Origin: Escherichia phage kvi
Length of the DNA: 64,000 nucleotides
Strand: one strand, 5' to 3'
Sequence record: MN850615.1
Part shown: positions 1-27,674 of the stretch, in pieces
How positions within the stretch are numbered: the first letter of the stretch is position 1
Layout: the number at the start of each line of letters is the position of its first letter
Program-made: the position numbers and the translations under genes
Notes under the pieces: generated by a model
The model's database searches: none
Told to the model about the DNA's origin: nothing
The model's input: only the letters and a program-made list of their open reading frames with translations

Positions 1-44
1 AAAGCAGTAGAAGAAAGAACGATAGCAGCGATAATGTTTTTCAT
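1..44 (-). CDS. 5' end of a gene running off the window (MKNIIAAIVLSSTA..., signal-peptide-like N-terminus)
   Basis: ATG at 44..42 with GAGGAA SD; promoter-like TTGACA-N17-TAAGAT at 79..107 upstream. Confidence 0.35.
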   Translation of the reverse strand, partial: MKNIIAAIVLSSTA

Positions 45-78
45 AATATATTCCTCAGTGTTTTGTCTTGATGGGAGT

Positions 79-107
79 ATCTTACTACTCACTTAATCCG
101 GTGTCAA
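79..107 (-). promoter_or_regulatory. sigma70-type early promoter (TTGACA-N17-TAAGAT)
   Basis: rc of 102..107 is TTGACA; rc of 79..84 is TAAGAT; AT-rich upstream. Confidence 0.5.
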
Positions 108-114
108 CTACTTT

Positions 115-270
115 TTAAATTTCTTCTACAGTAAAGTCTTCAATGTTGTTGTGCTCGGCGAACGTTGCCAGACCAGCATTCCATGCATCATCCTCAGAGA
201 AGAATACACCGTAACGTTCATATCCTTTAGCGCCTTCAAATTTAACCATTAATTTGTGAGTATGTTTCAT
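115..270 (-). CDS. hypothetical small protein (51 aa, MKHTHKLMVKFEG...)
   Basis: track ORF 115..333 trimmed to ATG at 270 with AAGGAGA SD; the longer start would lie inside the promoter at 302..330. Confidence 0.5.
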   Translation of the reverse strand: MKHTHKLMVKFEGAKGYERYGVFFSEDDAWNAGLATFAEHNNIEDFTVEEI

Positions 271-301
271 TTTGATTCTCCTTCGTTGTCTTGATGAGTT
301 T

Positions 302-330
302 AGTATAGGGGATCGCCGATCCCCTGTCAA
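302..330 (-). promoter_or_regulatory. sigma70-type promoter with palindromic 17-bp spacer (TTGACA-ggggatcggcgatcccc-TATACT)
   Basis: read directly on minus strand; spacer is a near-perfect GC-rich palindrome. Confidence 0.6.
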
Positions 331-339
331 CAACTATTT

Positions 340-552
340 TTAATTTTTACCCGCTCGTGCATTAATACGCATTTTCTGAATAGCCATGATCTGGCTTACT
401 GCTTCTTCTTTACGTTCTTGCGTGATAACGTGACCAGATTCCGCAAACTCTCCCGCAACTTCTTCTACGATCTCGCGAACTTGAGAACGTCCAAATATGC
501 GGTTTCCTTCGTAGCTCATAAATTCTGTTACTACTTGCTCGATAGATTTCAT
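340..552 (-). CDS. hypothetical protein (70 aa)
   Basis: track ORF 340..597 trimmed to ATG at 552 with AGGAGAATCAC leader. Confidence 0.5.
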   Translation of the reverse strand: MKSIEQVVTEFMSYEGNRIFGRSQVREIVEEVAGEFAESGHVITQERKEEAVSQIMAIQKMRINARAGKN

Positions 553-581
553 GTGATTCTCCTTTCGTTTGGTATGGTAGT

Positions 582-610
582 ATAATACTACTCCCATTTC
601 TTTACGTCAA
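582..610 (-). promoter_or_regulatory. sigma70-type promoter (TTGACG-N17-TATTAT)
   Basis: rc of 605..610 TTGACG; rc of 582..587 TATTAT. Confidence 0.5.
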
Positions 611-613
611 CAA

Positions 614-775
614 CTATTTTAAATTATTTTCGACCTTCACCCATTCCGCGTATTCTTGCGCGGCTACTTTCGGATTTAGTCCGTCTTCGTACATTGCTTC
701 AAGTAATGCTTCGTCGGTGGGCTTATACCCTAGATAAGCCTCCACCTGATTTTTCCAAATTTTATACCAGTTCAT
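614..775 (-). CDS. hypothetical small protein (53 aa, MNWYKIWKNQ...)
   Basis: track ORF 614..844; internal ATG at 775 chosen because upstream gene ends at 780. Confidence 0.4.
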   Translation of the reverse strand: MNWYKIWKNQVEAYLGYKPTDEALLEAMYEDGLNPKVAAQEYAEWVKVENNLK

Positions 776-779
776 ATTA

Positions 780-1052
780 TCACCAGTCAAGAGCGCGTGT
801 CTCTGCGTCTTCCCATGCTTGATCCATAACAGCCTTGAAAACATATTCTAAAGTATCATCTTTAGAGAATCCGAAGACCTTAGACGGAATATCTTCAATT
901 GCTACTCCCGCGACTTCTGCATTACGCGCTTGGCAATAATGCAACTCTAAGTTATCGAGATAGCGACCGCCTAATTTCTCCATATCATCCCAGCATTTCC
1001 AGTAACCTACTTTATTTGCAATCGCTAACACCTTGCTGTTTTCGTTGTTCAT
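780..1052 (-). CDS. hypothetical protein (90 aa)
   Basis: track ORF 780..1115 trimmed to ATG at 1052 with AGGAGAATCAAAG leader. Confidence 0.5.
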   Translation of the reverse strand: MNNENSKVLAIANKVGYWKCWDDMEKLGGRYLDNLELHYCQARNAEVAGVAIEDIPSKVFGFSKDDTLEYVFKAVMDQAWEDAETRALDW

Positions 1053-1082
1053 CTTTGATTCTCCTTTTGTTTGGTATGTGTG

Positions 1083-1111
1083 TATTATGCAATGATGGAT
1101 TTGTGAAGTCA
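1083..1111 (-). promoter_or_regulatory. sigma70-type promoter (TTGACT-N17-CATAAT)
   Basis: rc of 1106..1111 TTGACT; rc of 1083..1088 CATAAT. Confidence 0.5.
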
Positions 1112-1120
1112 ACAACTTTT

Positions 1121-1152
1121 TAAAATAAAAAAGCCGACCACACGGATCGGCT
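1121..1152 (-). terminator. rho-independent terminator (hairpin agccga...tcggct followed by U-run on minus strand)
   Basis: GC stem at 1131..1152 preceded on plus by aaaataaaaa, i.e. a T-run downstream on minus. Confidence 0.55.
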
Positions 1153-1162
1153 TAATAATCAG

Positions 1163-1558
1163 TTACTTACTAAATTTCTTTTTGGCTTCGTCTACCGCAT
1201 GAGATGCCAGTACCGCAGCCGCATGTGCACTTTTATCTGTGTTGCAGAGAACGCCCAGATAAACATCACGCCAAAGTTTAATCATCTCGTAGATCATATC
1301 AATATCATTTTCTTGTTTGTTGGCGATGCTATTCGTCGTTATCTGGTAAGGTAACGGCTTGATCTGTACTGGTTCCGCCATCGGGCTAATCGGTTTCGGA
1401 TCAGTCATAATAGGTGCTGTTGTGGGTGGTGTTTTCCATACGTCATTATTCCACGGTTTAATCGTTGTATCGTAAAGTTTATAAGGATTTTTGTCTGGAT
1501 TAACCATCCAGGCATGATGAGTACCCAAACCATTTGAAGTGATGCGTCGTTCAGTCAT
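1163..1558 (-). CDS. hypothetical protein (131 aa)
   Basis: track ORF. Confidence 0.5.
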   Translation of the reverse strand: MTERRITSNGLGTHHAWMVNPDKNPYKLYDTTIKPWNNDVWKTPPTTAPIMTDPKPISPMAEPVQIKPLPYQITTNSIANKQENDIDMIYEMIKLWRDVYLGVLCNTDKSAHAAAVLASHAVDEAKKKFSK

Positions 1559-1760
1559 ACTTTCCCTCCAAAAATTCTTTCATCAAATAGTCTATCGTTG
1601 CTCTGTGTTCTGGTGTGTTTGTTATCTCTGCTAACTTATTCAGAGATTCAATAGTGATCCGGTTGGATTCTTCCAGTGTTTCAACGACAATTGGAACAAT
1701 CTTTTTATTGTTGTACACAAATGCAATATAACCGCCTTCTGGATATTCTTTCATAATCAA
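1551..1760 (-). CDS. hypothetical protein (69 aa)
   Basis: track ORF, overlaps neighbours by a few nt. Confidence 0.45.
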   Translation of the reverse strand: MIMKEYPEGGYIAFVYNNKKIVPIVVETLEESNRITIESLNKLAEITNTPEHRATIDYLMKEFLEGKYD

Positions 1761-3103
1761 CCCTTCTTAAGTTCTTTAAGATCTTTCTTATATTCCTTCA
1801 TTGCGGTCGTCTTTGTCCAATACTCATATTCACTATGATGTTTATCGGCATCTTTGACCAGTCGATCATACTCTTCTTGAGTAACGCTATACAATGGCAT
1901 AGAAACTAGCTTATCGGCGTATGGACGCAGTTTTTCATGTCCATTGATGGATTGCATTACCTCGGCCTTTTTCTTGCCCTGTAGCTCGATTTCGCCCTTA
2001 ATTACGCGGTCGATAAATTCAGCTTTAGCCATTGCATAATTGTATGCTTCCAGTGTTTCCGCTTGCATCAATTCAATGCGTTTATCGACATACCCTAATC
2101 GGATTTCGACGAATCGACGGATCAGATCGCTCGCTTTCTCGAATACTTCTACTAAACCACGTTCATTAACCACTACGATATTCTGGGCTACTAACTGTGT
2201 TAGTTTAAAATCCTTCATGATTTGCTCATGTCGAGCGGATTCATCTTCGCTTTTGAAATAATCGCGTTTCAGTGTTACTTCAAATCTGAATCCGTCCTTA
2301 GAGCAACGGTCATTATACGATACAATCAGATCTTTTTCTTCCAGTGCATCCAGTACCGCTACATATTCTTCACGGTCGAACTTATAAGGAACTTCTGATA
2401 TTGTCAGTTTAGTCTTGCCGTTTAGTTCATATGTACCCTCAAGAATCACACCATCGCGATCATCTCGCGGGATAACTTTACCCGTGAATTTCGGGAATTG
2501 AACATTAGGTTCTTTATCCAGTTTTCCGGCAAGTGCTAGCTCTGTGCATTCAATAAGGCTTTCCAGTGAATGCGGTAAAATGTCAGTTTTATACCCTGAA
2601 GCAATACCACTAATACCATTAGCCAATACCATTGGCACAACTGGCAAGTAGAACGCTGGCGGGATGTGTTCCAGATCTTCGTGCTTAGGTGCGCAATTCA
2701 TATCTTTATAGATTTTAAAGAAGTTTTCATGCACACGAGCAAAGATATAACGTGCTGCACCTGCTTTCTGGACTAAACGAGATCCGAAGTTACCTTGACC
2801 GTCAAGCAGTGGAGTATTATTGCTCCATGTATTCGCCATGAGTGATCCGGCTTCTACGGCATTAGTTTCGCCGTGGTGATACCCCAATTCAGCAACACCA
2901 GATCCAATATCTGCCATCTTACGGAATTTCTTACGGTCGCCTTTACTCTTTTGAAGTGCGCACTCCATAACAAAGCGTTGCACTGGTTTAAGCCCATCTA
3001 CTAATTGAGGAATCCCGCGTTCCTCGGCAGAATAGATCGCATATTCCTTAGCTTCATTATGTACAATGCTTTCAAGGCTGCGGTAAGTAACTGATTTATT
3101 CAT
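1757..3103 (-). CDS. 52: DNA topoisomerase II medium subunit (GyrA-like)
   Basis: GyrA-type motifs GLKPVQRF, LDGQGNFGS, AARY; ATG at 3103 with GAGGTGAAG SD (track start 3118 is GTG); position downstream of rIIB as in T4. Confidence 0.85.
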   Translation of the reverse strand: MNKSVTYRSLESIVHNEAKEYAIYSAEERGIPQLVDGLKPVQRFVMECALQKSKGDRKKFRKMADIGSGVAELGYHHGETNAVEAGSLMANTWSNNTPLLDGQGNFGSRLVQKAGAARYIFARVHENFFKIYKDMNCAPKHEDLEHIPPAFYLPVVPMVLANGISGIASGYKTDILPHSLESLIECTELALAGKLDKEPNVQFPKFTGKVIPRDDRDGVILEGTYELNGKTKLTISEVPYKFDREEYVAVLDALEEKDLIVSYNDRCSKDGFRFEVTLKRDYFKSEDESARHEQIMKDFKLTQLVAQNIVVVNERGLVEVFEKASDLIRRFVEIRLGYVDKRIELMQAETLEAYNYAMAKAEFIDRVIKGEIELQGKKKAEVMQSINGHEKLRPYADKLVSMPLYSVTQEEYDRLVKDADKHHSEYEYWTKTTAMKEYKKDLKELKKG

Positions 3104-3110
3104 CTTCACC

Positions 3111-3473
3111 TCATACACGCTTACAAATCACATTCTTTACTTTATCAGATTTATCAGCCCAATCCAATAGCCATTTTAACGGAAGGATTGACACAATAAA
3201 CGGGGCAGCAATCAAAGCAAACATGATACACCGGATAATCAGGAAAGTGCAAGTAACAAAGCTAGCGATACTGATCCCGACAAAACAAAATACCATAGAA
3301 AACAGAGTAATGATATAGAAAGGCCAGAATACCCACTCCCGCATCTTAACGCCTTTGTATTCTCTGAATTGCTTAAAATCTACAAACAACTCTCGGATAG
3401 ACGCGTACAGGACCGAAAAATCATCTTTCATTGCTCTGAATGAGCAATCTTCTATTTTAGAATGACCTAGCAT
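3111..3473 (-). CDS. small membrane protein (120 aa, multiple hydrophobic segments)
   Basis: track ORF; hydrophobic stretches. Confidence 0.5.
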   Translation of the reverse strand: MLGHSKIEDCSFRAMKDDFSVLYASIRELFVDFKQFREYKGVKMREWVFWPFYIITLFSMVFCFVGISIASFVTCTFLIIRCIMFALIAAPFIVSILPLKWLLDWADKSDKVKNVICKRV

Positions 3474-3475
3474 TA

Positions 3476-3769
3476 TTAACCGCCTTTAACCATTGATACA
3501 GGAATTGTTTTCTGATTTGTGTATAAGTGGCCTACTTCAATTTTTTCTTGAATCACCACGACGTTACAATATCCACTGTCTTTAAGTTTTCTGATAATGA
3601 CTCGCTTTTGTTCGTCGGTGATAGGATTGACTGTTCTCACCAATTCACCGCAAATAATAGCACCATCTTTACAATTACCAGTAACTTTCATGCTACGACC
3701 GTGAACAACAACCACGTCACCGTAAATCACATTTTCGTCGTCGTATTTGGTAATAACCGTGACCGTCAT
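3476..3769 (-). CDS. hypothetical protein (97 aa)
   Basis: track ORF; preceded by hairpin aggccgctttgcgcggcct at about 3776..3800. Confidence 0.5.
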   Translation of the reverse strand: MTVTVITKYDDENVIYGDVVVVHGRSMKVTGNCKDGAIICGELVRTVNPITDEQKRVIIRKLKDSGYCNVVVIQEKIEVGHLYTNQKTIPVSMVKGG

Positions 3770-3814
3770 AATGTATTCCCTCTAAGAAAGGCCGCGCAAA
3801 GCGGCCTATGTTGA

Positions 3815-4147
3815 TTATTGTTCTACAGTATAACCGTTGTTTTCAAGCCATGCAATAACAATCTTTTCGCCAATTTCATCGAGCATTTCATCAGCGCCAT
3901 ATTCTTTAATGAAAGTCGATGGATCATTATTGCTTACTACGTGCTGGATCACAACATGTTCAGGAATTGCGTCTAGTAGTTCGCTATGATCATACTCATT
4001 AACGATATCTTCAACACTAACATTATTAACCAAATCAACATCATCCATAGTCACAGTAACGCGACCGGACGGACGCAATGAATATTGGCTACTTTCAACT
4101 TCAACATGTGCACTTTCGCAAGTAACTTTCATATCAACCATAATCAA
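3815..4147 (-). CDS. strongly acidic small protein (110 aa, about 23 D/E vs 5 K/R)
   Basis: track ORF; composition counted by eye. Confidence 0.5.
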   Translation of the reverse strand: MIMVDMKVTCESAHVEVESSQYSLRPSGRVTVTMDDVDLVNNVSVEDIVNEYDHSELLDAIPEHVVIQHVVSNNDPSTFIKEYGADEMLDEIGEKIVIAWLENNGYTVEQ

Positions 4148-4155
4148 TTCCTCTG

Positions 4156-5157
4156 TTAGTAATGGCTAAAACCTTCGGTCACATCTTCAACCACATAGTA
4201 ACGATGACAGCGCATTTTGGCATTTGCATAATCTTTCGGGATACTTACAACGTGACGCGGATCAACTTTGCATTTAATGATTCGGCCTCGTCCACCGCCA
4301 TAGTGCGGAATATAGTGTTTCGCTGCAACGTGGAGGCCATTAGAGCAAGTGCGATCATCATCTGGGTCCACGTCTTTACGCTTCATTTTAACCGTGCGAC
4401 CTGGGCTATTATCAAACGTATGCGTAAAGAAATCTTTATAATCAACATCAACACGTTTCCATGCATAGAAACAACCATCTTCCACGATCTCAATGTCGTT
4501 GTGCTCTAAGAAGTCAAATAGACGATCTACGGCCTTACGGCTAGGGTTTTTCTTGCACTTCTCAAAGAAGTTAAGATAGTGCGTATATGGCTTATTCTCT
4601 TTAATCGACTCCACAACTCGACGAGTCAGATTATTATCAAGAACAATATTATGATAATACACAATACCATTTTCGATACGGAAAGCGCCGTGATAATATA
4701 CTTCAACCGCTTTCTTAATGTCAATCAGCGTAATAGCTTTGATGAAATCATTATGTTTAATCGCTTCCAGTGCTTCCTTAAAGTTAACATGTGATGGATC
4801 AGCAGTATAAACAATGTCACCACATGTAATAGTAATAAACTTAGTTGAGGCTATGGCTACGATTTTTGAGGAAGTAGTTACGGGCTTTTTTGCGCGTTCA
4901 CCGCCTTTTCCTTTACTGGTTTTACGGCGTGCTTTACGTTTTTCTAGTGCCTTGCGACCTTCCGCTACTGCGTCTTTCTGAATCAGTAATACACGGGAGG
5001 CAGTGCGACGAGATACACCAAATGCTGCCGCAAGTGCTTCGCGGGTAGTAAACTTACCTTCGCCCCACTGTTTAGCCAGTTTGATTTGTTTCGCAGAATC
5101 CAGACATTGAACGTTACGGTCAGAGACGGTGATTTTTGCTTTAGTCATAGTATTCAT
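4156..5157 (-). CDS. rIIB: RIIB-like protein
   Basis: C-terminal half recalls T4 rIIB (..KCKVDPRHVVSIPKDYANAKMR..VVEDVTE..); adjacent to rIIA; alternative ATG at 5148 has the better SD. Confidence 0.8.
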   Translation of the reverse strand: MNTMTKAKITVSDRNVQCLDSAKQIKLAKQWGEGKFTTREALAAAFGVSRRTASRVLLIQKDAVAEGRKALEKRKARRKTSKGKGGERAKKPVTTSSKIVAIASTKFITITCGDIVYTADPSHVNFKEALEAIKHNDFIKAITLIDIKKAVEVYYHGAFRIENGIVYYHNIVLDNNLTRRVVESIKENKPYTHYLNFFEKCKKNPSRKAVDRLFDFLEHNDIEIVEDGCFYAWKRVDVDYKDFFTHTFDNSPGRTVKMKRKDVDPDDDRTCSNGLHVAAKHYIPHYGGGRGRIIKCKVDPRHVVSIPKDYANAKMRCHRYYVVEDVTEGFSHY

Positions 5158-5210
5158 TCCTCTATTAGTTGGGCGACTATTGCCGCCCGATTCACATCAT
5201 TATACCAGAA

Positions 5211-5342
5211 TTATTTTGCTTCGACAACCTTGCGGATTGTGCGGTCTGATACATTATAGATTCGTGCCAGTTCGCCTTTAGTCAAACCGCGAGCGTATTG
5301 TTTACGGATGGTTTCTTTCTGGATGGCGGTCAGTTTAGTCAT
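5211..5342 (-). CDS. small helix-turn-helix ORF (43 aa, MTKLTAIQKETIRKQYARGLTKGELARIYNVSDRTIRKVVEAK)
   Basis: ATG 5342..5340 to TAA 5213..5211, absent from track (<60 aa); HTH-like pattern. Confidence 0.35.
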   Translation of the reverse strand: MTKLTAIQKETIRKQYARGLTKGELARIYNVSDRTIRKVVEAK

Positions 5343-5353
5343 AATATCACCTC

Positions 5354-7462
5354 TTAAAATTTAACATTCTTAACCAGTTTCATAAAGTCTTGTGCGCGTT
5401 TGTCATTATGCAGAATACGATACCAGTTATCGACAATATCATACAGTAACGGGCTATTCTCTTTAAACTTCGCACAAACTGCTTTAATTCGTTCGTTTGC
5501 TACCGTGAATTTTTCATCACAAATCTTTTTAGTTTCTTCGTCCATAATCCAACGAGTACGAAGGAGTAACTTGGAAACCTCTTTATTATAATGACGACCG
5601 TACAGTCTGTCAATAAATTCTGGAACACAGCGTTCTAGTTCATCGTCATGAAACAACATAGTGATCACACCCAGATATTCGCCATACCCCAGATGATTGG
5701 TCTTAACCTTCTTAGCCAGACCAGCCAGCTTACCGCGAACAAATTCTAGCGCACATTCCAATTGTTCGTCAACGAGATATTTTTGTGTCTCGTTTCGAGT
5801 AATAATATACTTTGTTACCCCGAAGTAGTCAAGCGCCGTGTGTAATGTATTTTCACTATGGATCGATTTACGACTACGGCTTTCGAATGCATCACCTACG
5901 CGGAACATGTGCAAGCCTGATAACTCGCGAATCTCTGCCGCTTTCATGTGATGGCTGGTTTTATGCCAACTGTCACCAATCTTTTCCATGATATACACGT
6001 TAGGCAGCTTAGGAGTCGCTTCACGTTGTGTACGCTCGGTCTTCTCCGGTTTAACTGCTTTAGCACGCAGATCATCGGCCTCAGAAACTTTAATCACGGT
6101 CATTTCAGAATCATCATAATACTGTTTGATGTACTCGAAAGTTTCCATATGTTTTTCGTTGCGCTGACGGAACACCAGTACCTTTTTATTGATGCCGTAT
6201 TCCTGGACCATACCGTTAAGAGTCAGTGCGCGTAGTTTCGGTTTATCGGTATCATCAATAAGACACATAATATCTTCTTTATGCATCCATACAAAATGCG
6301 TAATGTTGTATTGACTGCTAACGAAAGCAGGGCGCAATTTACTGATTGTGTGACGAGTACGATACAGAGTATACACCTGACCTTCTACGTCATTAGGCGA
6401 ATCTTTACCCGCATTCACAAACTTATTATAGATTGCTACCGGATCATCCCACTGCCCGATCTTACCCATCTTGCTAATAATATTGCGTTGAGTCGATGAA
6501 TACTCGCTCATAAATTGCGCAAGTTTACGCTCTGTTTTAATGTTGGCGATCTTCTCTTTGACCTTTTCCAACATCATTTCATTGATTTCTGCAATGCGTT
6601 TTTCGATGTTCGCTTTAGTCTCAATTGACAAGTGAACTTCTTCACGCGATGGCATCAGGTCCAGATCACCCAACTCAAAATTAATGTAAATGGTCTGGTG
6701 CTGGCGGTTTACAGCTTCTAACCATGTTCCGCGAACATATTCATACGGGATCGGATACTGGATCTTACCCATGATTGCATATACTACATAGGAATCGTTA
6801 TCACGCCCATTACAAACATAATAATTATCAAAGCTAGGGAAATAATTAATTTCGATTGCATTGATATTAGGTTTGTGTTCCCCAAAATGACGCAGTACAA
6901 ATTGCGCTTCTCGATGCCATGTCTGAATATCTTTTTCTTTCACCGGAATAGTGATTTTCAGACCATTGTCTTCATAGGTCGGTTCGTCGAAAATCTGCAC
7001 CATTTTCGGCATAGAGTTTTGCACAAATGCCGTAAAGCCATAAGCGCGACCATTGTAATAGTTTACGATTGTAAAGGTGTCAGTGTAGCTATAAGCAGAT
7101 TTCGCACCTAAACCAAAAGACCCGATATAGTCATTAGTCTGGTCTTTTGTTGATTCAAAGTAAACCGTAAACAGTTGTTCTAATTCTTTCTTAGACGGAA
7201 TACCAGTACCATAATCACGCACAGAGAAATACGGTTCGATTGCAGTCGGTAAATGAATATCAAACGGACGATCTAAGGTTCCGGCTTCTTTGTGAGTGTC
7301 GGTAGCATTGCACGAATACTCACGGACGCAAGCACGCTCACAATATTGATAAGTGTTCTTAGAAAGCACCATAAAAGCCTTGCTACTTGCTTTCAGTGAA
7401 AAATCAACCGCACCGCTCAGGTCACTGCCAAATACTTCTTCATTATCAATATGCATTTTCAT
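5354..7462 (-). CDS. rIIA: RIIA-like protein (GHKL-type ATPase-like N-terminus)
   Basis: 702 aa; segment ..YIGSFGLGAKSAYSYTDTFTIVNYYNGRAYGF.. recalls T4 rIIA; synteny between topoisomerase gene and rIIB. Confidence 0.85.
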   Translation of the reverse strand: MKMHIDNEEVFGSDLSGAVDFSLKASSKAFMVLSKNTYQYCERACVREYSCNATDTHKEAGTLDRPFDIHLPTAIEPYFSVRDYGTGIPSKKELEQLFTVYFESTKDQTNDYIGSFGLGAKSAYSYTDTFTIVNYYNGRAYGFTAFVQNSMPKMVQIFDEPTYEDNGLKITIPVKEKDIQTWHREAQFVLRHFGEHKPNINAIEINYFPSFDNYYVCNGRDNDSYVVYAIMGKIQYPIPYEYVRGTWLEAVNRQHQTIYINFELGDLDLMPSREEVHLSIETKANIEKRIAEINEMMLEKVKEKIANIKTERKLAQFMSEYSSTQRNIISKMGKIGQWDDPVAIYNKFVNAGKDSPNDVEGQVYTLYRTRHTISKLRPAFVSSQYNITHFVWMHKEDIMCLIDDTDKPKLRALTLNGMVQEYGINKKVLVFRQRNEKHMETFEYIKQYYDDSEMTVIKVSEADDLRAKAVKPEKTERTQREATPKLPNVYIMEKIGDSWHKTSHHMKAAEIRELSGLHMFRVGDAFESRSRKSIHSENTLHTALDYFGVTKYIITRNETQKYLVDEQLECALEFVRGKLAGLAKKVKTNHLGYGEYLGVITMLFHDDELERCVPEFIDRLYGRHYNKEVSKLLLRTRWIMDEETKKICDEKFTVANERIKAVCAKFKENSPLLYDIVDNWYRILHNDKRAQDFMKLVKNVKF

Positions 7463-7745: not shown

Positions 7746-7940
7746 TTATACATTTTCAATTACCCATTGCAGATGGGCTTCTGCGTCAACCAGTTCAGCG
7801 CGGCTTTTCTCTAAGCACTTGCTGTATTCTTTACGTTCCCACTCGGCAATTTCGTTTTTCAGGACTTCTTCATAGTAAGCAATTACGCCTTTCAGGTCTG
7901 AAACTTTACGGCTTGCCAATTCGATGTAATGGTTACGCAT
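7746..7940 (-). CDS. hypothetical protein (64 aa)
   Basis: track ORF. Confidence 0.45.
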   Translation of the reverse strand: MRNHYIELASRKVSDLKGVIAYYEEVLKNEIAEWERKEYSKCLEKSRAELVDAEAHLQWVIENV

Positions 7941-8127
7941 TTTGATTCTCCTTTGTTACTAGATAACGAATTTGGTCTTGCATTGCGATCAGTTCCCAGC
8001 GTGCTACTTTCATCATGGAAACTGACTCTTTGAACATAATATTAGCTTTTTCCTTCTCCCCTGTCAAGTAGATTTCTGCAATTTTTTCACAAAATTTTTG
8101 AGTTTCTTCATTCTTAAACGGTTTCAT
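7933..8127 (-). CDS. hypothetical protein (64 aa)
   Basis: track ORF 7933..8136 starts at TTG; ATG at 8127. Confidence 0.45.
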   Translation of the reverse strand: MKPFKNEETQKFCEKIAEIYLTGEKEKANIMFKESVSMMKVARWELIAMQDQIRYLVTKENQNA

Positions 8128-8157
8128 ATAAGTCAACCTTTTGTTTTCGATGGGGAC

Positions 8158-8193: not shown

Positions 8194-8493
8194 TTAATCT
8201 TTTTTCAATGCATCCATTACTCGCTCTGCGATCAGTTCTCGTAAGCACTGATAACCATGATATTTGATGGCAATGTCACGCAGATCATTAACCAGTTCCC
8301 GTACTTCATGGTCTTTCAGATCGTCTCTGTATTTCGATTTAACCGTGTCTTTAGGTGGATTGTGGATAACCTGAAAACCTTGTTCTGCAATCACTGCGGC
8401 TTCTCGCTGGCGTTCATGTTGTACTGTATTTTTGATCAGGTCTACTTCCATGAACTTTGTCATACTCATCATCATGTTATTCTTTTTGCTCAT
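8194..8493 (-). CDS. hypothetical protein (99 aa)
   Basis: track ORF 8194..8529 trimmed to ATG at 8493 with GAGGA SD; longer start overlaps promoter. Confidence 0.5.
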   Translation of the reverse strand: MSKKNNMMMSMTKFMEVDLIKNTVQHERQREAAVIAEQGFQVIHNPPKDTVKSKYRDDLKDHEVRELVNDLRDIAIKYHGYQCLRELIAERVMDALKKD

Positions 8494-8527
8494 TATTAAA
8501 TCCTCATAAACGAAAAGGGAGACTCCC

Positions 8528-8555
8528 ATTATAGAGAATCTCCCTTGTATGTCAA
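8528..8555 (-). promoter_or_regulatory. sigma70-type promoter (TTGACA-N16-TATAAT) followed by short hairpin and U-run
   Basis: rc of 8550..8555 TTGACA; rc of 8528..8533 TATAAT; gggagactccc at 8517..8527 then T-run. Confidence 0.5.
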
Positions 8556-9115
8556 CTAAAATTTAAAGATGCAAACTCCCCGTGATGAATTTTTGCATAT
8601 TCATCATATGCTCTAGCGGCTTCCTCCTGAGTAGCAAACGATCCTATGTATTTTCTGTATCCGTTTATCCTTATTTGTGCTTGCCACGGTCTTTTGCTAG
8701 ATCCTTTGCGATGAGTAACACCATTATATATGCTCGTGCACCCGTCAATTTTCTTTTTATTGTACATGTTTTGTTGTTGTGTTGCCTCCCGTAAATTTGG
8801 TGGATTGTTGTTTTCTGGATTCCCGTCTATGTGGTCTATTACCTTAACCTGTGTTCCATATTCAAGAAACCAGACAATTCTATGTACAAGATATGTAGAT
8901 GTTCTCTTTTTAACCTTATTGTAAACATCTATTGCCAAATGACCGTAATTTAACTTTTTTGTTTTTACTTTATCACCGACTCGGTAGAAATATCCCTCTG
9001 GTAGACCATTAAAAGACGGACTATTTGTTTTGTGATATAGAACACCTTCCGTGTGTTCAAATCTGCGTTTTAATTCCTCTTGAATTTCAGTATTCCAAAA
9101 TTTCGCACTTTTCAT
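8552..9115 (-). CDS. free-standing HNH endonuclease with C-terminal AP2-like DNA-binding domain (homing-endonuclease-like)
   Basis: HNH-type motif ..HRIVWFLEYG..IDHIDGNPENNNPPNLR..; AP2-like ..RPWQAQIRINGYRKYIGSFATQEEAARAYD..; start overlaps topoisomerase stop (TAATATG). Confidence 0.75.
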   Translation of the reverse strand: MKSAKFWNTEIQEELKRRFEHTEGVLYHKTNSPSFNGLPEGYFYRVGDKVKTKKLNYGHLAIDVYNKVKKRTSTYLVHRIVWFLEYGTQVKVIDHIDGNPENNNPPNLREATQQQNMYNKKKIDGCTSIYNGVTHRKGSSKRPWQAQIRINGYRKYIGSFATQEEAARAYDEYAKIHHGEFASLNFS

Positions 9116-9116
9116 A

Positions 9117-10940
9117 TTATGACGCCATCCATGCCTTCCTCATGTCTGAATCTTCACTATAGAGCAAATCGAATAGCTCTTTATAGTTTTCCGGTAACGT
9201 GATGATCTCCATGACAGGATCGTTGATCACGCGATGATAGTCTGATTCTGTGAGCGATGCTAAACCTTTGATATATCGAATGTTGTAACCTTTGATATTA
9301 TCTCGGTCGGTCTCAAAATCTTCTAGGTCATAATACCATCGAACATCATCACCTTTCTTTGGTTCCGCAATGATAATAGGTGTTTTGATAAACCGGATTC
9401 GTCCATCTTCGAACAATTCAGGCCAACGAGCAAAGAAAGAGATCAGACTAGGTTTAATAGACCCGATCCCGTCAGTATCAGCGTCTGTCATAATCGCAAT
9501 ATTTTTGTATTGCATAACTTCCAATGCATCAACACCAAATTGCAAGCCAGTGATCGCCATGATGTTAAAAATTTCGGCGTTCTTAACGATCTTTGCCTCC
9601 GGTTGTTCCCACGTTGTAAGAGTTTTGCCTCGCAACGGGAAACCTCCATGTAAATCTGGATCACGTACAGAGACCAGATAGTTGATCGCGGAATCACCTT
9701 CCGTCAAAAACAGGGTAGTTTCTGCGTCAGTTCCAATAAGGTTAGCTTTAACGTGTTTTGCTACCTTAGCCCGTTTCGCTGCTTTTGCTACCTTAGTCGC
9801 TGCCGCTTTATCTGCTGCCTCTTTGCGTGCCAGGACTACAGCAATAATAGGCATGATAATGTTTTCTTTCTTCGCAATGACTTTAGCCAGCTTTTTAAAA
9901 TCAAGATCAATATGACGCTTGATATCACCAGTTGGATTAGTCAATCGTTCTTTTGTCTGTGAATCAAAACGAAGGTTAGGCAATTCACGAACAATAAGAA
10001 TACAGGTCAATCCAGACTTAACCGCAGCTTTAGTAACATCAACCTTATGTTCTTTCTTGATTCGTTTTACAATCTCTTCACAAAGATCATCTGTCACGTA
10101 GTCTACGTGTGTTCCCCCGTTTTTGGTAAACAGACCATTAGCAAAGGATACTGATTTAAAACCTTCTCCCTCGACCGCAGGAACTAGGGCAAGTGAAAAG
10201 TTTTTATCTTCAATGACAAACGGATCATCATTGTATAGTTTAGCATAATCCTTGAACTTACTAACAATACGTTTACCATTAAACTTAAACGTGATCTTAG
10301 GAAAGATTACGCTCAATGATTGCAGACGATCATGAACAATATCTAAAACAGAGTTGTCCATCATATAACCTTCGAAGTGGTCGAAGTCTGGGCAAAATGT
10401 AACCTTTGTTCCCTTCAATTTTGATGGTTTCGATGACCATGTGATATTTTCAGCACCGTTTGTACATTGAACGGTCATTTCTGTTTCTCCGTCACAGGTC
10501 ACACCAGTAAACCAATCGCTAAAGAAATTTGACAACGACGACCCCACACCGTTCATCCCTTGCGTTAATCGATTGGTATCATCAAAGTTAGACCCTGCTT
10601 TTGTTCGTGTCCATGCGGCTACAGGTTGCGGAATCTGCGTGCCCTCTGGAGTAGTAACCATATGTTGAGGAATACCGCGACCATTGTCTGTTACCGTAAC
10701 AATATTGTTTTGGATATCGACGCTAATCACATTGGCAAATTCAAAATTAGTGCGAATCGCCTCGTCTACAGAGTTGTCGATGATCTCATCAATGATTTTA
10801 ACCAGTCCTGGAACATATGAAATTTTTGTCCATTTACCGAACAGGAAACGTTGGTGTTCTTCGTAAGTTGTTGATCCTATATACATTCCTGCACGCTTAA
10901 GGACATGTTCACGATCAGATAAAATGCGAAACTCACTCAT
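9117..10940 (-). CDS. 39: DNA topoisomerase II large subunit (GyrB-like ATPase and TOPRIM; T4 gp39 and gp60 equivalents fused)
   Basis: 607 aa; N-terminus ..ILSDREHVLKRAGMYIGS.. is the GyrB signature; single uninterrupted ORF. Confidence 0.9.
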   Translation of the reverse strand: MSEFRILSDREHVLKRAGMYIGSTTYEEHQRFLFGKWTKISYVPGLVKIIDEIIDNSVDEAIRTNFEFANVISVDIQNNIVTVTDNGRGIPQHMVTTPEGTQIPQPVAAWTRTKAGSNFDDTNRLTQGMNGVGSSLSNFFSDWFTGVTCDGETEMTVQCTNGAENITWSSKPSKLKGTKVTFCPDFDHFEGYMMDNSVLDIVHDRLQSLSVIFPKITFKFNGKRIVSKFKDYAKLYNDDPFVIEDKNFSLALVPAVEGEGFKSVSFANGLFTKNGGTHVDYVTDDLCEEIVKRIKKEHKVDVTKAAVKSGLTCILIVRELPNLRFDSQTKERLTNPTGDIKRHIDLDFKKLAKVIAKKENIIMPIIAVVLARKEAADKAAATKVAKAAKRAKVAKHVKANLIGTDAETTLFLTEGDSAINYLVSVRDPDLHGGFPLRGKTLTTWEQPEAKIVKNAEIFNIMAITGLQFGVDALEVMQYKNIAIMTDADTDGIGSIKPSLISFFARWPELFEDGRIRFIKTPIIIAEPKKGDDVRWYYDLEDFETDRDNIKGYNIRYIKGLASLTESDYHRVINDPVMEIITLPENYKELFDLLYSEDSDMRKAWMAS

Positions 10941-11039
10941 TATTAAACCTCTTCATAACATAACCATAACTTACTGCAACCGCCACAAAGACGGCTGCAA
11001 CAATCATATTAAAAATTGAGTGATTGTCAAGTATATGAC

Positions 11040-11213
11040 TCATGACACGCGCACATTTTTATCGTAATACCCGCCATTAATCCCGCGCGGGGCAGTTAAT
11101 CCCTGTTTACATTCTTTACCGCATTCAGGGCATTCTGCCTTTTCACGCTCGGAAATTTTGCGGATTTTCTGAAATTGACCGTGTTCTTCACAAGAATAAT
11201 CGTATAATGGCAT
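11040..11213 (-). CDS. small zinc-ribbon protein (CxxH..CPECGKEC)
   Basis: track ORF 11040..11294 trimmed to ATG 11213, just after dexA stop (TAATATG). Confidence 0.5.
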   Translation of the reverse strand: MPLYDYSCEEHGQFQKIRKISEREKAECPECGKECKQGLTAPRGINGGYYDKNVRVS

Positions 11214-21882: not shown

Positions 21883-23359
21883 TTAAATGTCAAACAGGTC
21901 AGTCAGAGAAGCAACTTTCTCATATTGCAGCTTTGCAGCCGTGGTAATGTTCTCCAGTGGTTTGACGAAAGTCTTATTAAACAACAAAGGCCAGTCTAAC
22001 CACTTTAACACCTCTGATTCAATTTCTGGAGGAATACGAGTACCGGACAACCAACCAAAACAGATTTCTCCAAACGGATTTCGATCTTTCAGCGGTACAA
22101 TCATAACCTTCTCGCCCTCACGAATTGGATCTAGTCCGAATTTTCGAGCATTACGATTATAACACAATACACTCTTAACCGCATACGGACAACCCTTAAT
22201 CGGATACCCGTTTGAATCGCTGTATTTCTGTAGGTTGTTTGCAGATGATACCGCAGCAACCTCAAGATAATCAAGTTTTCTAAATTCTTGCTCAAAAATA
22301 CCGTAGTATTCCTGCAATGACTCTTCACCTTCCTGCAACATACGGCGAATACATTCTTTCAGTGATTTCTGACATGCTTTAGGGGTGGAGCTACGTTGCG
22401 TTTCCAAGCCCATGATTTTTAGCTTAGGTTCAGCAAAGCGCGTTCCTTCCATATCCCAAACATTAAGAGCATAACGCTTTTTGCCAGTCCAGAATCCACC
22501 GATACCCGCAGATTTCAACGGAGGACCAGCAATTGCCTCACGGTCCATAAACATCAAGTGCTCATAGTTGTTCATGTACTCGCATAACTCGCGATATCCC
22601 TTGTCGATAATAGGTTCCATTCGATGTTTACCGAAATTATCAAGGAAGTCAACAAGTTTTTCGGTATCGTCGAAACGGTCTTCCCCGCCAACCTTATCAA
22701 CAACATTGTTAACCAGCACATAAACGGAGTCAGTATCACAATAACGAACATATGCAAAATCGGTTGTTCCGCAAAGCTCGTTTAAGTATTCGTTAATCTT
22801 ACGCTCAATCCACTGAATTGCAAGCTGACCAAACAAGGTGATCGCACTAGCGTTACGGAGATCATAAAAACGGAATTTAGGATTCCCCAACGCACCATAA
22901 AGGGAGTTGATCAAAACTTTTCGAGAAAGCTGGTTTGTATTGCACAAGATCGACTCGTCTTTACATTCTTCCAGCAATTTCTCTAAGGCATCTTTACTTA
23001 ATTCAGAAAGCATCGATTTAAACGCTTCATCAAAGTCGTGACGTACTTCAACGCTATAGCTAATGGTTCCCCCATAAACATGATTTTCATCGTGTAGAAT
23101 CGCTTTACAGAGTTCAGCATTGCGATCACATGCCAACATCATGTTTTTGTACTGCTTACGCTGATCGAATACCTTTTTAATCTCAATCGGTACGATACCG
23201 TGAATATCTTTTCTATACATCCATCCGTTAGGAGAGCAAGAATACTCATCACTCGGACGTGGTGCAGTTTTATTGATATACTCGTGCATCGGTGCAGCAT
23301 CAAAAGATCCGGCGATTGTTTCCGGCGAAATGTTAACCTGACGGATGATTGATGGATAC
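21883..23359 (-). CDS. 43: DNA polymerase (family B), exon 2
   Basis: track ORF 21883..23289 extends upstream in frame to 23359 (..YPSIIRQVNISPETI..), continuing exon 1; exons together give about 892 aa. Confidence 0.85.
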
Positions 23360-23499
23360 CATTATGTTCAGCGCGGTTCGCTACTCCCGCGCCCGTTCTC
23401 TTACGAACTGCTACATGTCACCATGTAGATCAGACTATATCACATTCTCATAGAGAATCCTGCCATTTCGAATCGCTTGATTCTACTCTACTCGGTTCG

Positions 23500-24324
23500 T
23501 TACCCTTTCGATAGTCGTTGAACAACTGCATCTTTAAGCTCATTTTGATCAAACGGTGTTCTCTTACAGTACCCGCTATAATTCTTAGCAAAAGGTTTCT
23601 TCTTACCAAAGATCTCTTTTCCTGAATTATGTGATTCAACAAGAAAATTCACCATTTCATCAAATGTGAAACTTGCAAATTTAGCATAAGTTTCATTACG
23701 TTTTGACATTATTTTACTCATAACTTCCGGTCGTTTAGACGCTGAATTTTCGCGTTTCTCGCCAGTATTAAATGATACCAACTCACCGGAAACATATCTA
23801 GGATCATCACAACTAACTCTAAACCGATTTCCTTCCTTATCCTTAACGATAACAGTATTCTTTAGCTTTTCTGCCATAGAATCAAGACCTTTTCGTATAG
23901 TGTCCTCATCAGCCCCGAAATATTTCTTTCCGCTCATATCGGTTCTGGCTTTTCCGGTCTTGTTTTCGGATATTTTCAGTCTAACTTCCTCTCGCTTGGC
24001 TGGGTTATTGTCTCCAGCGAATGCATCTTTGGTTAACGCCTTCACTTTATCGTCATAAGATCCTCTAGAGATGAAAGCATATGCTCTCTTGCATTCACCG
24101 TTATTGAATATTAAGCACAATAACCGATGCGCCTCGACGTGGTCTTCAAACTTAAGCCTAACAAGATTCCATTTATCTAACCGATATTCAGGGAACATTG
24201 ACTTCGGGCATATATGATGCACCTCGGAATATTCTTCACCCTGATACGGATTAGACACCAGTTTAATGTAGTCGTTTAATGCTTCCTCGTTATGTATTTC
24301 GTACTTTCTTAAAATGTCTTTCAT
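23500..24324 (-). CDS. intron-encoded HNH homing endonuclease (274 aa from MKDIL...)
   Basis: HNH motif ..EVHHICPKS..WNLV..H..H; GGAGG SD before ATG at 24324; TATAAATA upstream. Confidence 0.8.
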   Translation of the reverse strand: MKDILRKYEIHNEEALNDYIKLVSNPYQGEEYSEVHHICPKSMFPEYRLDKWNLVRLKFEDHVEAHRLLCLIFNNGECKRAYAFISRGSYDDKVKALTKDAFAGDNNPAKREEVRLKISENKTGKARTDMSGKKYFGADEDTIRKGLDSMAEKLKNTVIVKDKEGNRFRVSCDDPRYVSGELVSFNTGEKRENSASKRPEVMSKIMSKRNETYAKFASFTFDEMVNFLVESHNSGKEIFGKKKPFAKNYSGYCKRTPFDQNELKDAVVQRLSKG

Positions 24325-24347
24325 CTCGCGCCTCCAATGTATATCAA

Positions 24348-24355
24348 TATTTATA
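24348..24355 (-). promoter_or_regulatory. T4-type late promoter motif TATAAATA upstream of the intron ORF
   Basis: rc of 24348..24355 is TATAAATA, about 24 nt upstream of the HNH start codon. Confidence 0.55.
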
Positions 24356-24473
24356 TACATTATAAGACACGTTAGCTCAAAATGCAACTGCTGCTGATTG
24401 TCTCCTTAGAGATTTCCCAGCAATTAAGCAGGTTATTCGATCACTGTCACCAGTGAAAGCCCCATATCAGTTT

Positions 24474-26121: not shown

Positions 26122-26700
26122 TTACCACCTTTCTATAATCTTTTTAAGTCGTTTCCTTTCTGTCTGATTCTTAGTAACACCCGCCAAAAGTTCATCGGTC
26201 GCATACGGTTTAATGTGCTTCAATAACTTGTCCATATATCCCTTTTCATTAGCCAAATCGAGATAAAACCGGGCGTCATCCATATTTACACAATATGCTT
26301 TCGCCACTGCCATTAAAACCAATTTTTGGTCCAATTCTTCTGTTAGTTTAGCCCATTTACCGTATCGTTTCCCCTTAGAAATACTCTGTAAGAGATAATC
26401 AAAATGCATTTGATCTGGGAGGCCATGACCGATTAAATTCATCACATACGCGCTATATAGGCAATCTGCGTGCTGGGAAAGAGCGGTGTTAATCCATCTC
26501 TGGTTATATGCAGAATTGTTTCCCACATTAACGCGCTGTTTATCTAAGGTGATATGATCCATCAGAGCAAATAATGCATTGTCGGTTTTCTCGGTGAATG
26601 TATCCGCTAATTCAGACACCTTTTCCCAATCACGAGAGCGCCATGCAATTTCATGCTCGTTTAATTGTGTATCATCTTCACCGAAAAATTGACCTAACAT
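26122..26700 (-). CDS. 62: clamp loader small subunit
   Basis: 192 aa; position between 44 and regA, 1-nt overlap with 44. Confidence 0.7.
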   Translation of the reverse strand: MLGQFFGEDDTQLNEHEIAWRSRDWEKVSELADTFTEKTDNALFALMDHITLDKQRVNVGNNSAYNQRWINTALSQHADCLYSAYVMNLIGHGLPDQMHFDYLLQSISKGKRYGKWAKLTEELDQKLVLMAVAKAYCVNMDDARFYLDLANEKGYMDKLLKHIKPYATDELLAGVTKNQTERKRLKKIIERW

Positions 26701-27674
26701 TATACGAACTCCAATTCAACCATTAATTGCATTAACAAAAAGACAATGTGAATCTCTTTATCAGCCGCGTGTGCAAACATCTGATTATTTTCACCGATAA
26801 TCTCGGTCAGACGTATAATCGACGCTGGCTTAACTTGAGTATACAACTCATTATAAAGTTTCTTGACAAATTGAGCGTATGTATTGGTATATCGCGGTGC
26901 AAGTTTACGCACATTAGCAAACTGTTTAGTTTTAAGTGCTTCCACCACATCGGTTACTTCGGTATTGCTACTTTCTATAACCATGCTCAATACGCCAGCA
27001 TCAATTTTACCATGTTTAGCGTAGCGGTCCAAAAGTTTCATTACGCGTCGGAAGTCTGGGAAGTTCTGCTTAACCAGTTCCGCTAATACGCGCATTTCTT
27101 CGACTGGCACACCTTCTTTATCAAGAATTGCTTTACACCGGACGATCATTTCTTTCATCATGCGAAGCTGATCATCTTTAGTCGGAGATCCAAACGTGAT
27201 TGGATCAAATCGAGATCGTAACGCTGGGATAATACCTTCTAGATCGTTTGCTGTGATAATGAATGTTACATTGTTTGAGTATGCCTCAGAGAAACTACGC
27301 AAGTGTCTTTGAGCATCAGCTAGCCCCGCTCGGTCATACTCATCGATAATAACAACTTTGCCTTTTTCTCGTTTTTCTTCATCGAGTGATACACTCTGCG
27401 CAAAGCGTGTAATCTCATCTCGGATAAAATCAATCTTACAATCTGCGCCGTTAACAAACAGATAATCAACACCCACATCTTCGCAAAGCGCCTTAGCAAC
27501 GGTTGTTTTACCAGTACCCGGCGATGGGCTATGCAGAATCATTGAAGGGATTCGGCCTTGCTTAACAATCTGCGCGAAGATCTTTTTATCTGCTTCCGGC
27601 AGAATACATTCAGAAATTGATTTCGGACGGTATTTCTGTTCCCACTGAAACTCATTTTCATTAACACTCAGCAT
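26700..27674 (-). CDS. 44: clamp loader large subunit (AAA+)
   Basis: Walker A SPSPGTGKTT, Walker B ..VIIDEYD..; track ORF trimmed to ATG 27674. Confidence 0.9.
   Translation of the reverse strand: MLSVNENEFQWEQKYRPKSISECILPEADKKIFAQIVKQGRIPSMILHSPSPGTGKTTVAKALCEDVGVDYLFVNGADCKIDFIRDEITRFAQSVSLDEEKREKGKVVIIDEYDRAGLADAQRHLRSFSEAYSNNVTFIITANDLEGIIPALRSRFDPITFGSPTKDDQLRMMKEMIVRCKAILDKEGVPVEEMRVLAELVKQNFPDFRRVMKLLDRYAKHGKIDAGVLSMVIESSNTEVTDVVEALKTKQFANVRKLAPRYTNTYAQFVKKLYNELYTQVKPASIIRLTEIIGENNQMFAHAADKEIHIVFLLMQLMVELEFV

Follow-up and report, generated by a model that had tools for sequence, protein, structure and literature searches.

A free-standing HNH-AP2 gene, probably a homing endonuclease gene, immediately after the gene for the topoisomerase II large subunit in Escherichia phage kvi

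The open reading frame (ORF) at 8552..9115 on the minus strand of Escherichia phage kvi is, with a probability that we put at roughly 0.8, a free-standing HNH-AP2 homing endonuclease gene that was inserted right behind the Krischvirus gene for the large subunit of topoisomerase II. The case for homing is built from the domains and active site of the protein, the polymorphism at a single site, the clean boundaries of the insertion, the low divergence of the inserted cassette, the discordance between cassette and backbone, a foreign base composition and the habit of the family. The analysed DNA, i.e. the whole stretch of 64,000 nucleotides from record MN850615.1 (the window), comes from a Krischvirus, an RB49-like T4-type coliphage. 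In the phage collection 58 Krischvirus records match the 3.6-kb stretch around the ORF at 90-99.6% identity, and the best full-length matches are LF73P4 and W115 (~98.5%).

The gene order on the minus strand is dexA, a small zinc-ribbon ORF, the topoisomerase II large subunit, the HNH-AP2 ORF, four small ORFs and rIIA (5354..7462). The HNH-AP2 ORF, which an earlier reading made from the letters alone (hereafter the sequence-only reading) had given with no strand, is a real minus-strand ORF of 564 nt that starts with ATG, encodes 187 amino acids and ends with a TGA stop at 8552..8554. The gene to which it is attached, at 9117..10940 (minus strand, 607 aa), matches the Pfam families DNA_gyraseB, HATPase_c, Toprim and TOPRIM_C as well as PHROG 543 'DNA topoisomerase II large subunit' (7e-252). 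In tblastn its residues 2-474 align with T4 gp39 and residues 480-607 with T4 gp60. The protein spans both T4 products and is therefore the unsplit form, which bears out the description of the large subunit as a single 607-aa ORF that T4 divides into genes 39 and 60. The gene is colinear with that of the endonuclease-free relatives and is 1824 nt long in all of them.

On the coding strand the junction of the two genes reads ...GCG TCA TAA T ATG AAA..., with the TAA stop at 9119..9117, a single T at 9116 and the ATG at 9115..9113. The nuclease gene thus lies immediately downstream of the topoisomerase gene, as had been claimed, its start being 1 nt past the host stop codon. The same reading had spoken of a TAATATG overlap; the string TAATATG is present, but stop and start share no base and the junction is an abutment with a 1-nt spacer. 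An intron or intein reading of the ORF was discarded: the ORF begins past the host stop, and the Rfam search of the window returned no family at the gathering threshold. A separate ORF, the presence of both domains and a polymorphic site all support the interpretation as a free-standing endonuclease.

The assignment of the HNH domain is solid. A profile search, the check proposed in the sequence-only reading, places Pfam HNH_3 over residues 75-118 well above threshold (51.8 bits, cut-off 24.8, E 6.3e-14), PHROG 99 'HNH endonuclease' matches at 1.3e-48, and phmmer against the PDB retrieves I-HmuI (1u3e) over residues 42-121 (E 5.6e-5). The beta-beta-alpha-metal nuclease core corresponds to 8762..8893 on the minus strand and contains D94, H95, N103, N107 and N116, so that the catalytic D-H...N residues are kept. 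The sequence match pairs D94-H95 and N116 with D74-H75 and N96 of I-HmuI, in which the catalytic histidine reportedly acts as the general base together with the adjacent aspartate and the asparagine is said to bind the metal (as told of the 1u3e paper). In an alignment of 42 homologues D94 and N107 are invariant, and H95 (at least 90%) and N103 nearly so. An AlphaFold model built on the 42 homologues is very confident (pLDDT 94.7, pTM 0.86) and has strands 93-95 and 108-110 followed by a helix at 113-118, i.e. the beta-beta-alpha-metal fold; Foldseek aligns its N-terminal two thirds with I-HmuI 1u3e at a probability of 1.0 over 103 columns (rmsd 3.5 A). Judged from the conserved residues, the nuclease active site looks intact.

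The AP2 domain is confirmed by its matches to sequences of known structure and by the predicted fold, despite a Pfam score below the cut-off. In the profile search itself Pfam AP2 reaches 25.7 bits over residues 130-175 (cut-off 33.3, E 1.5e-5), and the precomputed Pfam list for a 99% identical protein (P0001) includes PF00847 with the flag 'weak'. Over residues 127-186 (8558..8737, minus strand) phmmer against the PDB returns the plant AP2/ERF domains of WRI1 (1e-5), ERF096 (3.5e-5) and AtERF1 (2.8e-4). In the model this part forms a three-stranded sheet (strands 133-135, 144-150 and 153-160) followed by a helix at 163-181, and Foldseek superimposes the C-terminal third on AtERF1 1gcc (TM 0.77, rmsd 1.6 A, 41% identity) and on the AP2 domain of TEM1 (7et5, rmsd 1.2 A).

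The ORF has no recognisable ribosome-binding site, a property that would also be seen in a chance ORF or an annotation artefact. Such an origin is excluded by the present data, i.e. by the strong profile matches, the very confident predicted structure, the specific fold matches and the occurrence of homologues of the protein in more than 1100 phage records.

The 564-nt gene itself is much rarer. It was found at 98.9% identity or more in only 8 phage records, which represent 7 phages (W115, pEJ01, FL15, G37-3, G5211, JSE and LF73P4). In other words, 8 of the 58 Krischvirus records are carriers, and the gene is always right behind the topoisomerase gene. A 201-nt probe spanning the empty junction of RB49 was compared with the 58 records; it matched as a single unbroken piece in 50 and was split by the insertion in the 8 carriers. 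The junction is thus polymorphic for presence and absence among related phages, and since 50 of the 58 close relatives lack the gene, growth does not depend on it. The absence of the gene from these relatives and the presence of nuclease motifs both agree with the HNH-AP2 homing endonuclease that had been proposed for the locus. Two metagenomic (Logan) contigs encode a 99% identical protein in the same context; IMG/VR yielded no extra carriers, only relatives at 48% identity or less. Within the window tblastn of the protein recovers only its own gene, i.e. no second copy.

The limits of the insertion could be fixed to the base. Conserved anchors on the two sides are 710 nt apart in filled sites and 152-155 nt apart in empty ones, and the cassette (8556..9143, minus strand) comprises 588 nt that replace 30 nt of the empty site, a net gain of 558 nt. 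According to the junction alignments its left boundary lies 24 nt before the stop codon of the topoisomerase gene and on the right it ends exactly at TTGACA, the -35 hexamer of the promoter that follows. This is a perfect sigma-70-type promoter of the next gene, TTGACA-16-TATAAT (8528..8555, minus strand; 12/12 in the promoter scan), which is also found at empty sites, and the terminator scan finds a terminator-like hairpin of 13 pairs followed by a T-run (8515..8546, minus strand). The TGA stop of the endonuclease gene falls inside the host TTGACA, and the insertion therefore keeps both the perfect promoter at 8555..8528 and the overlapping hairpin at 8546..8515. The base composition of the inserted gene also differs from that of its neighbour: G+C is 36.0% in the endonuclease gene vs 40.9% in the topoisomerase gene, and GC3 is 29% vs 37%.

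The left end of the cassette consists of a recoded topoisomerase tail, i.e. the last 8 codons and the stop of the gene (ATGAGGAAGGCATGGATGGCGTCATAA; 9117..9143, minus strand, 27 nt). This tail is identical in all eight carriers (peptide SDMRKAWMAS*) and differs from the FL37-type empty allele by 12 nucleotide substitutions. Empty sites encode four other tail peptides, SDRRKIWMQS*, ADQRKIWMQS*, SDRRKAWMQS* and SDRRKEWMCS*. The recoded tail is the only upstream difference that splits all carriers from all non-carriers and, as no other upstream SNP does so, it is the strongest candidate for an altered target, a role that we infer from the comparison of the alleles.

The seven endonuclease-free genomes that were compared have five nucleotide alleles and four peptides of the tail, and the 30-nt stretch is the most variable of the gene in this sample, which is biased. 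Diversity at the tail ranked first among 58 windows (π 0.244 vs a mean of 0.056); six of the seven genomes had been chosen for low identity across the junction, which biases the ranking, and we have set it aside as main evidence. The 27-nt tail might combine self-immunity, a functional C-terminus and a signal for translational coupling, and the tails of the empty sites might be resistance alleles selected by the endonuclease; we regard this wider reading as conceivable but rather doubtful. If it were true, the final codons of an essential gene would display an arms race (compare the bypass of T4 mobA/gene 60). AP2 domains favour GC-rich DNA, and at precisely the position of the recoding in the carrier allele the FL37-type empty allele has GACCGCCGC. 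A 'GCC-box' as AP2 target is kept as a lead only, since the window contains 13 copies of CCGCCG and the RB49- and JEP8-type alleles are without it.

The divergence of the cassette was compared with that of its flank. Relative to the window, the cassettes of the other carriers are 99.0-99.8% identical and the adjacent 1548 nt of the topoisomerase gene 91.8-99.2%. The discrepancy is greatest in G37-3 and G5211, which have 2 differences in 592 nt of cassette vs 125-127 in 1548 nt of flank; at the flank rate ~48 cassette differences would be expected (binomial P ~1e-19). For W115, pEJ01 and FL15 the corresponding P values are 1e-4 to 1e-6. The topoisomerase is essential and conserved, which makes stronger constraint on the endonuclease gene an implausible cause of the low cassette divergence. 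Low divergence across backbones that differ by up to 8% rather indicates recent spread than old residence.

The backbone of the window around the site is, among the genomes compared, closest to that of the endonuclease-free phage FL37 (99.4% identity upstream and 99.8% downstream). The 10 upstream differences from FL37 are all located between -647 and -13, with none from -648 to -2000, and the downstream side has 3 differences in 1500 nt. The comparison with the carrier LF73P4 has the reverse form: there is 1 difference in the 500 nt upstream that adjoin the cassette and there are 20 farther out, and downstream there are 32 differences, the first of them 6 nt past the boundary. The SNPs thus delimit a minimal donor-like tract in the 3' part of the topoisomerase gene (9144..9546, minus strand) that is LF73P4-like and unlike the FL37 backbone; the carrier-like patch reaches 403 nt or more into the topoisomerase gene and under 44 nt in the opposite direction. 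The window looks like an FL37-type genome that has gained from a carrier the cassette, ~400-650 nt of adjoining topoisomerase sequence and under 44 nt of flank at the opposite end. Homing with co-conversion would be expected to leave such a tract, and general recombination could yield it as well; the clear tract is that of one recombinant backbone, i.e. the window vs FL37, and of a single event.

T4-type phages recombine very often, so that a mosaic patch and a discordant distribution could arise without any action of an endonuclease. Mosaicism is present around the locus irrespective of the cassette: JSE and FL15 are without a neighbouring small ORF, and G5211 and JEP8 have another nuclease gene at the opposite end of the topoisomerase gene. 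Together with the low frequency of the gene (8/58 records) this regional mosaicism would suit a passive passenger or a decaying former homing gene, inserted once, shuffled since then by general homologous recombination, lost here and there by deletion and cleaving nothing now. We consider such a history unlikely. None of the eight copies is truncated or contains a frameshift or stop, and all keep the catalytic residues; the near identity of the cassette on divergent backbones speaks for recent spread, and the recoded tail is strictly linked to the gene.

The intact active site also bears on the view that the protein has been domesticated, either as an AP2-type DNA-binding regulator or as a nuclease that excludes competing phages or degrades other DNA. 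AP2 domains are transcription factors in plants, DNA-binding domains derived from homing endonuclease genes have been co-opted in phage-satellite conflicts (PMC10448857), and cutting the topoisomerase gene of a co-infecting relative would exclude the markers of the competitor. A complete nuclease active site and the lack of the gene in 50 of the 58 Krischvirus records stand against domestication, and marker exclusion is no real alternative, being an expected by-product of homing; we thus think domestication quite improbable.

The expression signals of the locus point to dependence on the host gene. On the minus strand only one strong promoter-like site precedes the endonuclease gene, TTGACA-16-TATGAT (11003..11030; 11/12 in the promoter scan), which is 5' of the topoisomerase gene. 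Between the start of the topoisomerase gene and that of the endonuclease gene the coding strand has no sigma-70-like site of 10/12 or better that could serve as a promoter of its own, and the T4-type late-promoter motif TATAAATA does not occur in 8500..11100. Neighbouring genes have GAGG/GGAG boxes 6-9 nt ahead of the ATG, whereas the endonuclease ATG has no Shine-Dalgarno box at the usual position; the nearest one, GAGGAAGG, is 18 nt off and within the recoded tail. The lack of a promoter and a Shine-Dalgarno box of its own, and the location between the host stop and a pre-existing terminator, make it probable that the gene is co-transcribed with the topoisomerase gene. The hairpin at 8515..8546, annotated as a terminator in G5211 and Makalu_002, probably ends the common transcript. 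The simplest reading of the missing Shine-Dalgarno box and the 1-nt spacing is co-transcription with weak translation coupled to termination at the TAA. Weak coupled translation would suit the generally low expression of such genes. A regulatory RNA structure at the junction was considered and rejected: the minimum free energy of 9080..9175 (minus strand) is -15.4 kcal/mol vs a mean of -15.8 for shuffled sequences (z = 0.16).

The homing cycle that we propose would run as follows. The transcript would start from the early promoter at 11030, and the endonuclease would be translated at a low level by termination and reinitiation at TAA-T-ATG. The product would be a monomeric I-HmuI-like enzyme with an N-terminal beta region, an HNH site formed by D94/H95/N116 and a C-terminal AP2 domain that would supply sequence-specific binding; its activity is predicted from the model. 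In a co-infection of a carrier and an endonuclease-free Krischvirus, the empty allele would, as the population pattern suggests, be nicked or cut by the enzyme close to where the topoisomerase gene ends; in T4-type recombination-dependent repair the carrier would then be the template from which the 588-nt cassette and some flank are copied. The carrier itself differs from the empty allele by the 12 substitutions in the last 8 codons, and the recoded tail may protect it from cleavage. Free-standing endonucleases can cleave hundreds of bases from the insertion point, and the target site is placed near the 3' end of the gene by inference from the alleles. Since the closest solved relative, I-HmuI, nicks DNA, the HNH-AP2 protein need not make a double-strand break. 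In the literature searched we found no cleavage, nicking or homing experiments on this protein or its close relatives, or on the HNH-AP2 class in Krischvirus.

The HNH-AP2 class is said to have been defined by Magnani et al. in 2004. In RB49 and RB43 AP2-HNH genes were recognised in 2006 as a putative class of mobile endonucleases (Nolan et al., PMC1524935), and HNH-AP2 genes of T4-related phages were tabulated as putative homing endonuclease genes in 2010, with two in JSE and one in RB49 (Petrov et al., PMC2993671, Table 5). Our tblastn searches place the same numbers in these two genomes. In JSE the gene is EpJSE_00005, which occupies the identical site (98.4% protein identity), and in W115, G5211 and FL15 the gene is annotated in GenBank as 'HNH endonuclease' or 'homing endonuclease'. 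The HNH-AP2 genes of T4-related phages (RB49ORF040c, the RB16 'homing endonuclease 2' by gene 46, and those of RB43) have the same order of an I-HmuI-like HNH followed by AP2. They are also of like size (~180-190 aa), stand free behind conserved replication or recombination genes and are patchy in close relatives. Paralogues with 42-49% identity directly follow other such genes, i.e. the primase gene in KFS-EC and gene 46 in RB16 and Klebsiella phages; they presumably have other targets, and nothing essential differs from the gene of the window. The window is without the RB49ORF040c paralogue.

I-HmuI of Bacillus phage SPO1 aligns over ~80-100 residues that comprise the N-terminal beta region and the HNH core, and it is likewise monomeric and modular, the nuclease being followed by a separate DNA-binding module. 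It differs in that it is encoded in a group I intron and has a C-terminal helix-turn-helix module where the window protein has AP2. I-HmuI nicks one strand.

A cassette in the same host gene, T4 mobA/gene 60, is reportedly of the HNH type and is said to shield its carrier by altered host-gene sequence (as told of Bonocora et al. 2011, PNAS). It thus resembles the present cassette, which also carries an altered piece of the host gene. In T4 the cassette interrupts the gene close to residue 475-480 (numbering of the unsplit form), with 39 and 60 as the two parts, whereas the insertion in the window lies past the last codon and leaves the gene whole; unlike T4 mobA/gene 60, the junction is without a translational bypass element. 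Kinship with T4 mobA was rejected: tblastn of the protein against T4 1-6500, the 39-60 interval, gave a best E of 2.7, i.e. no similarity.

Intronless homing has been described for the T4 enzymes SegF, SegG and MobE (Belle 2002, Liu 2003, and Wilson and Edgell 2009, as cited in PMC2993671). In function these enzymes and the T4 mobA/gene 60 cassette are the nearest analogues of the window gene. The mechanism predicted here is alike, i.e. the endonuclease-free allele of a relative would be cleaved, repaired from the carrier and co-converted in its flank, and the asymmetric donor-like tract in the window is the type of footprint described for these enzymes. The Seg enzymes have a GIY-YIG catalytic domain rather than HNH, and their homing was shown in crosses, whereas homing of the window gene is deduced from comparative genomics.

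A second element is located in gene 43 (DNA polymerase), which is interrupted between 23289 and 24467 by ~1.1 kb with an ORF at 23500..24387. The sequence-only reading had counted two putative homing endonucleases in the window; this is borne out for the HNH-AP2 gene, and support for an intron around the gene 43 ORF is weak, with a match to Rfam Intron_gpI at 23411..23671 that stays below the gathering score (30.6 vs 50 bits, E 1.9e-5). Pfam finds no significant domain in the ORF. The gene 43 insertion is full in 11 records, truncated in JSE and missing from most Krischviruses, including FL37, W115 and LF73P4, and it assorts independently of the HNH-AP2 cassette among the phages. For gene 43 of JSE the presence of a group I intron has been proposed earlier (PMC2993671).

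The element described here is a typical, already catalogued free-standing HNH-AP2 gene, a putative homing endonuclease gene that has been in GenBank since the JSE genome. Such genes are common in T4-related phages, and its importance beyond correct annotation is slight. What the comparison adds are the base-exact limits of the cassette, the recoded tail of an essential gene that is linked to it and a natural example of a probable co-conversion tract. Carriers and non-carriers that are ~99% identical around the site are available in collections, which makes the locus convenient for testing intronless homing by enzymes of the as yet uncharacterised HNH-AP2 class. Moreover, for Krischvirus phage-therapy cocktails, biased inheritance around the topoisomerase gene would be predicted in mixed infections.

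Nuclease genes also occur on the upstream side of the topoisomerase II large-subunit gene in related phages. In the relative G5211 (L004) a different nuclease gene, with a Pfam Endonuclease_7 match (5.6e-16), lies directly upstream of it at 4047..4775, and in JEP8 (L013) the ORF in the same place (3930..4201) is annotated as 'endonuclease VII'. The equivalent position in the window is approximately 10941..11040, where, unlike in these two relatives, no nuclease gene is present at the upstream end. Together with the HNH-AP2 gene behind the topoisomerase gene, the genes of G5211 and JEP8 therefore mean that either end of the topoisomerase gene is an insertion point for polymorphic nuclease genes.

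The variability of the topoisomerase tail was compared using window positions 9117..9149 and the homologous position in seven related phage records (L001 and L010-L015). Among these endonuclease-free Krischviruses no other 30-nt stretch of the gene varies as much as its last 30 coding nucleotides (π of 0.244 vs. a gene mean of 0.056), a ranking that is biased because the compared genomes were chosen for divergence at the junction. The five nucleotide alleles of the tail encode four distinct tail peptides.

Other members of the HNH-AP2 family are found in other phages. RB49 has its own HNH-AP2 gene, RB49ORF040c (RB49 26383..26928), which is 42.5% identical to the protein studied here. No counterpart of RB49ORF040c was found in the whole 64-kb window, the tblastn search giving the self-hit only, i.e. 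this is another presence/absence difference within the HNH-AP2 gene family. A paralogue with 48.7% identity to the protein studied is found in KFS-EC (L038, 1501..2049), in a gap with the DNA primase gene directly before it and the dUTPase gene after it; it is left without annotation in the RefSeq record.

An insertion of about 1.1 kb (23289..24467, minus strand) interrupts the DNA polymerase gene 43 and contains an ORF of 274-295 aa (23500..24387). The Rfam family Intron_gpI gave only a sub-threshold match to the insertion at 23411..23671, with 30.6 bits (threshold 50) and an E of 1.9e-5; the ORF has no significant Pfam domain. Eleven phage records have the whole insertion, JSE has a truncated form, and most Krischviruses lack it. 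Approximately 130 nt of the insertion (~23392..23519) match endonuclease-gene regions of Proteus phage phiP4-3 with 82% identity.

Downstream of the endonuclease lies a 111-aa ORF (8194..8529, minus strand), the true start of which is probably the ATG at 8493, giving 99 aa. No Shine-Dalgarno sequence precedes the ATG at 8529, which lies immediately past the perfect promoter's -10 hexamer; the ATG at 8493 has GAGGA 7 nt upstream. The PHROG 15065 alignment begins at residue 13 of the 111-aa ORF, and the homologue is annotated in RB49 in a 300-nt form.

A small ORF homologous to RB49p004 (7933..8136, minus strand) is absent from JSE (L002) and FL15 (L005). This indel, which lies some 400 nt beyond the downstream end of the cassette, shows further mosaicism of the early-gene region.
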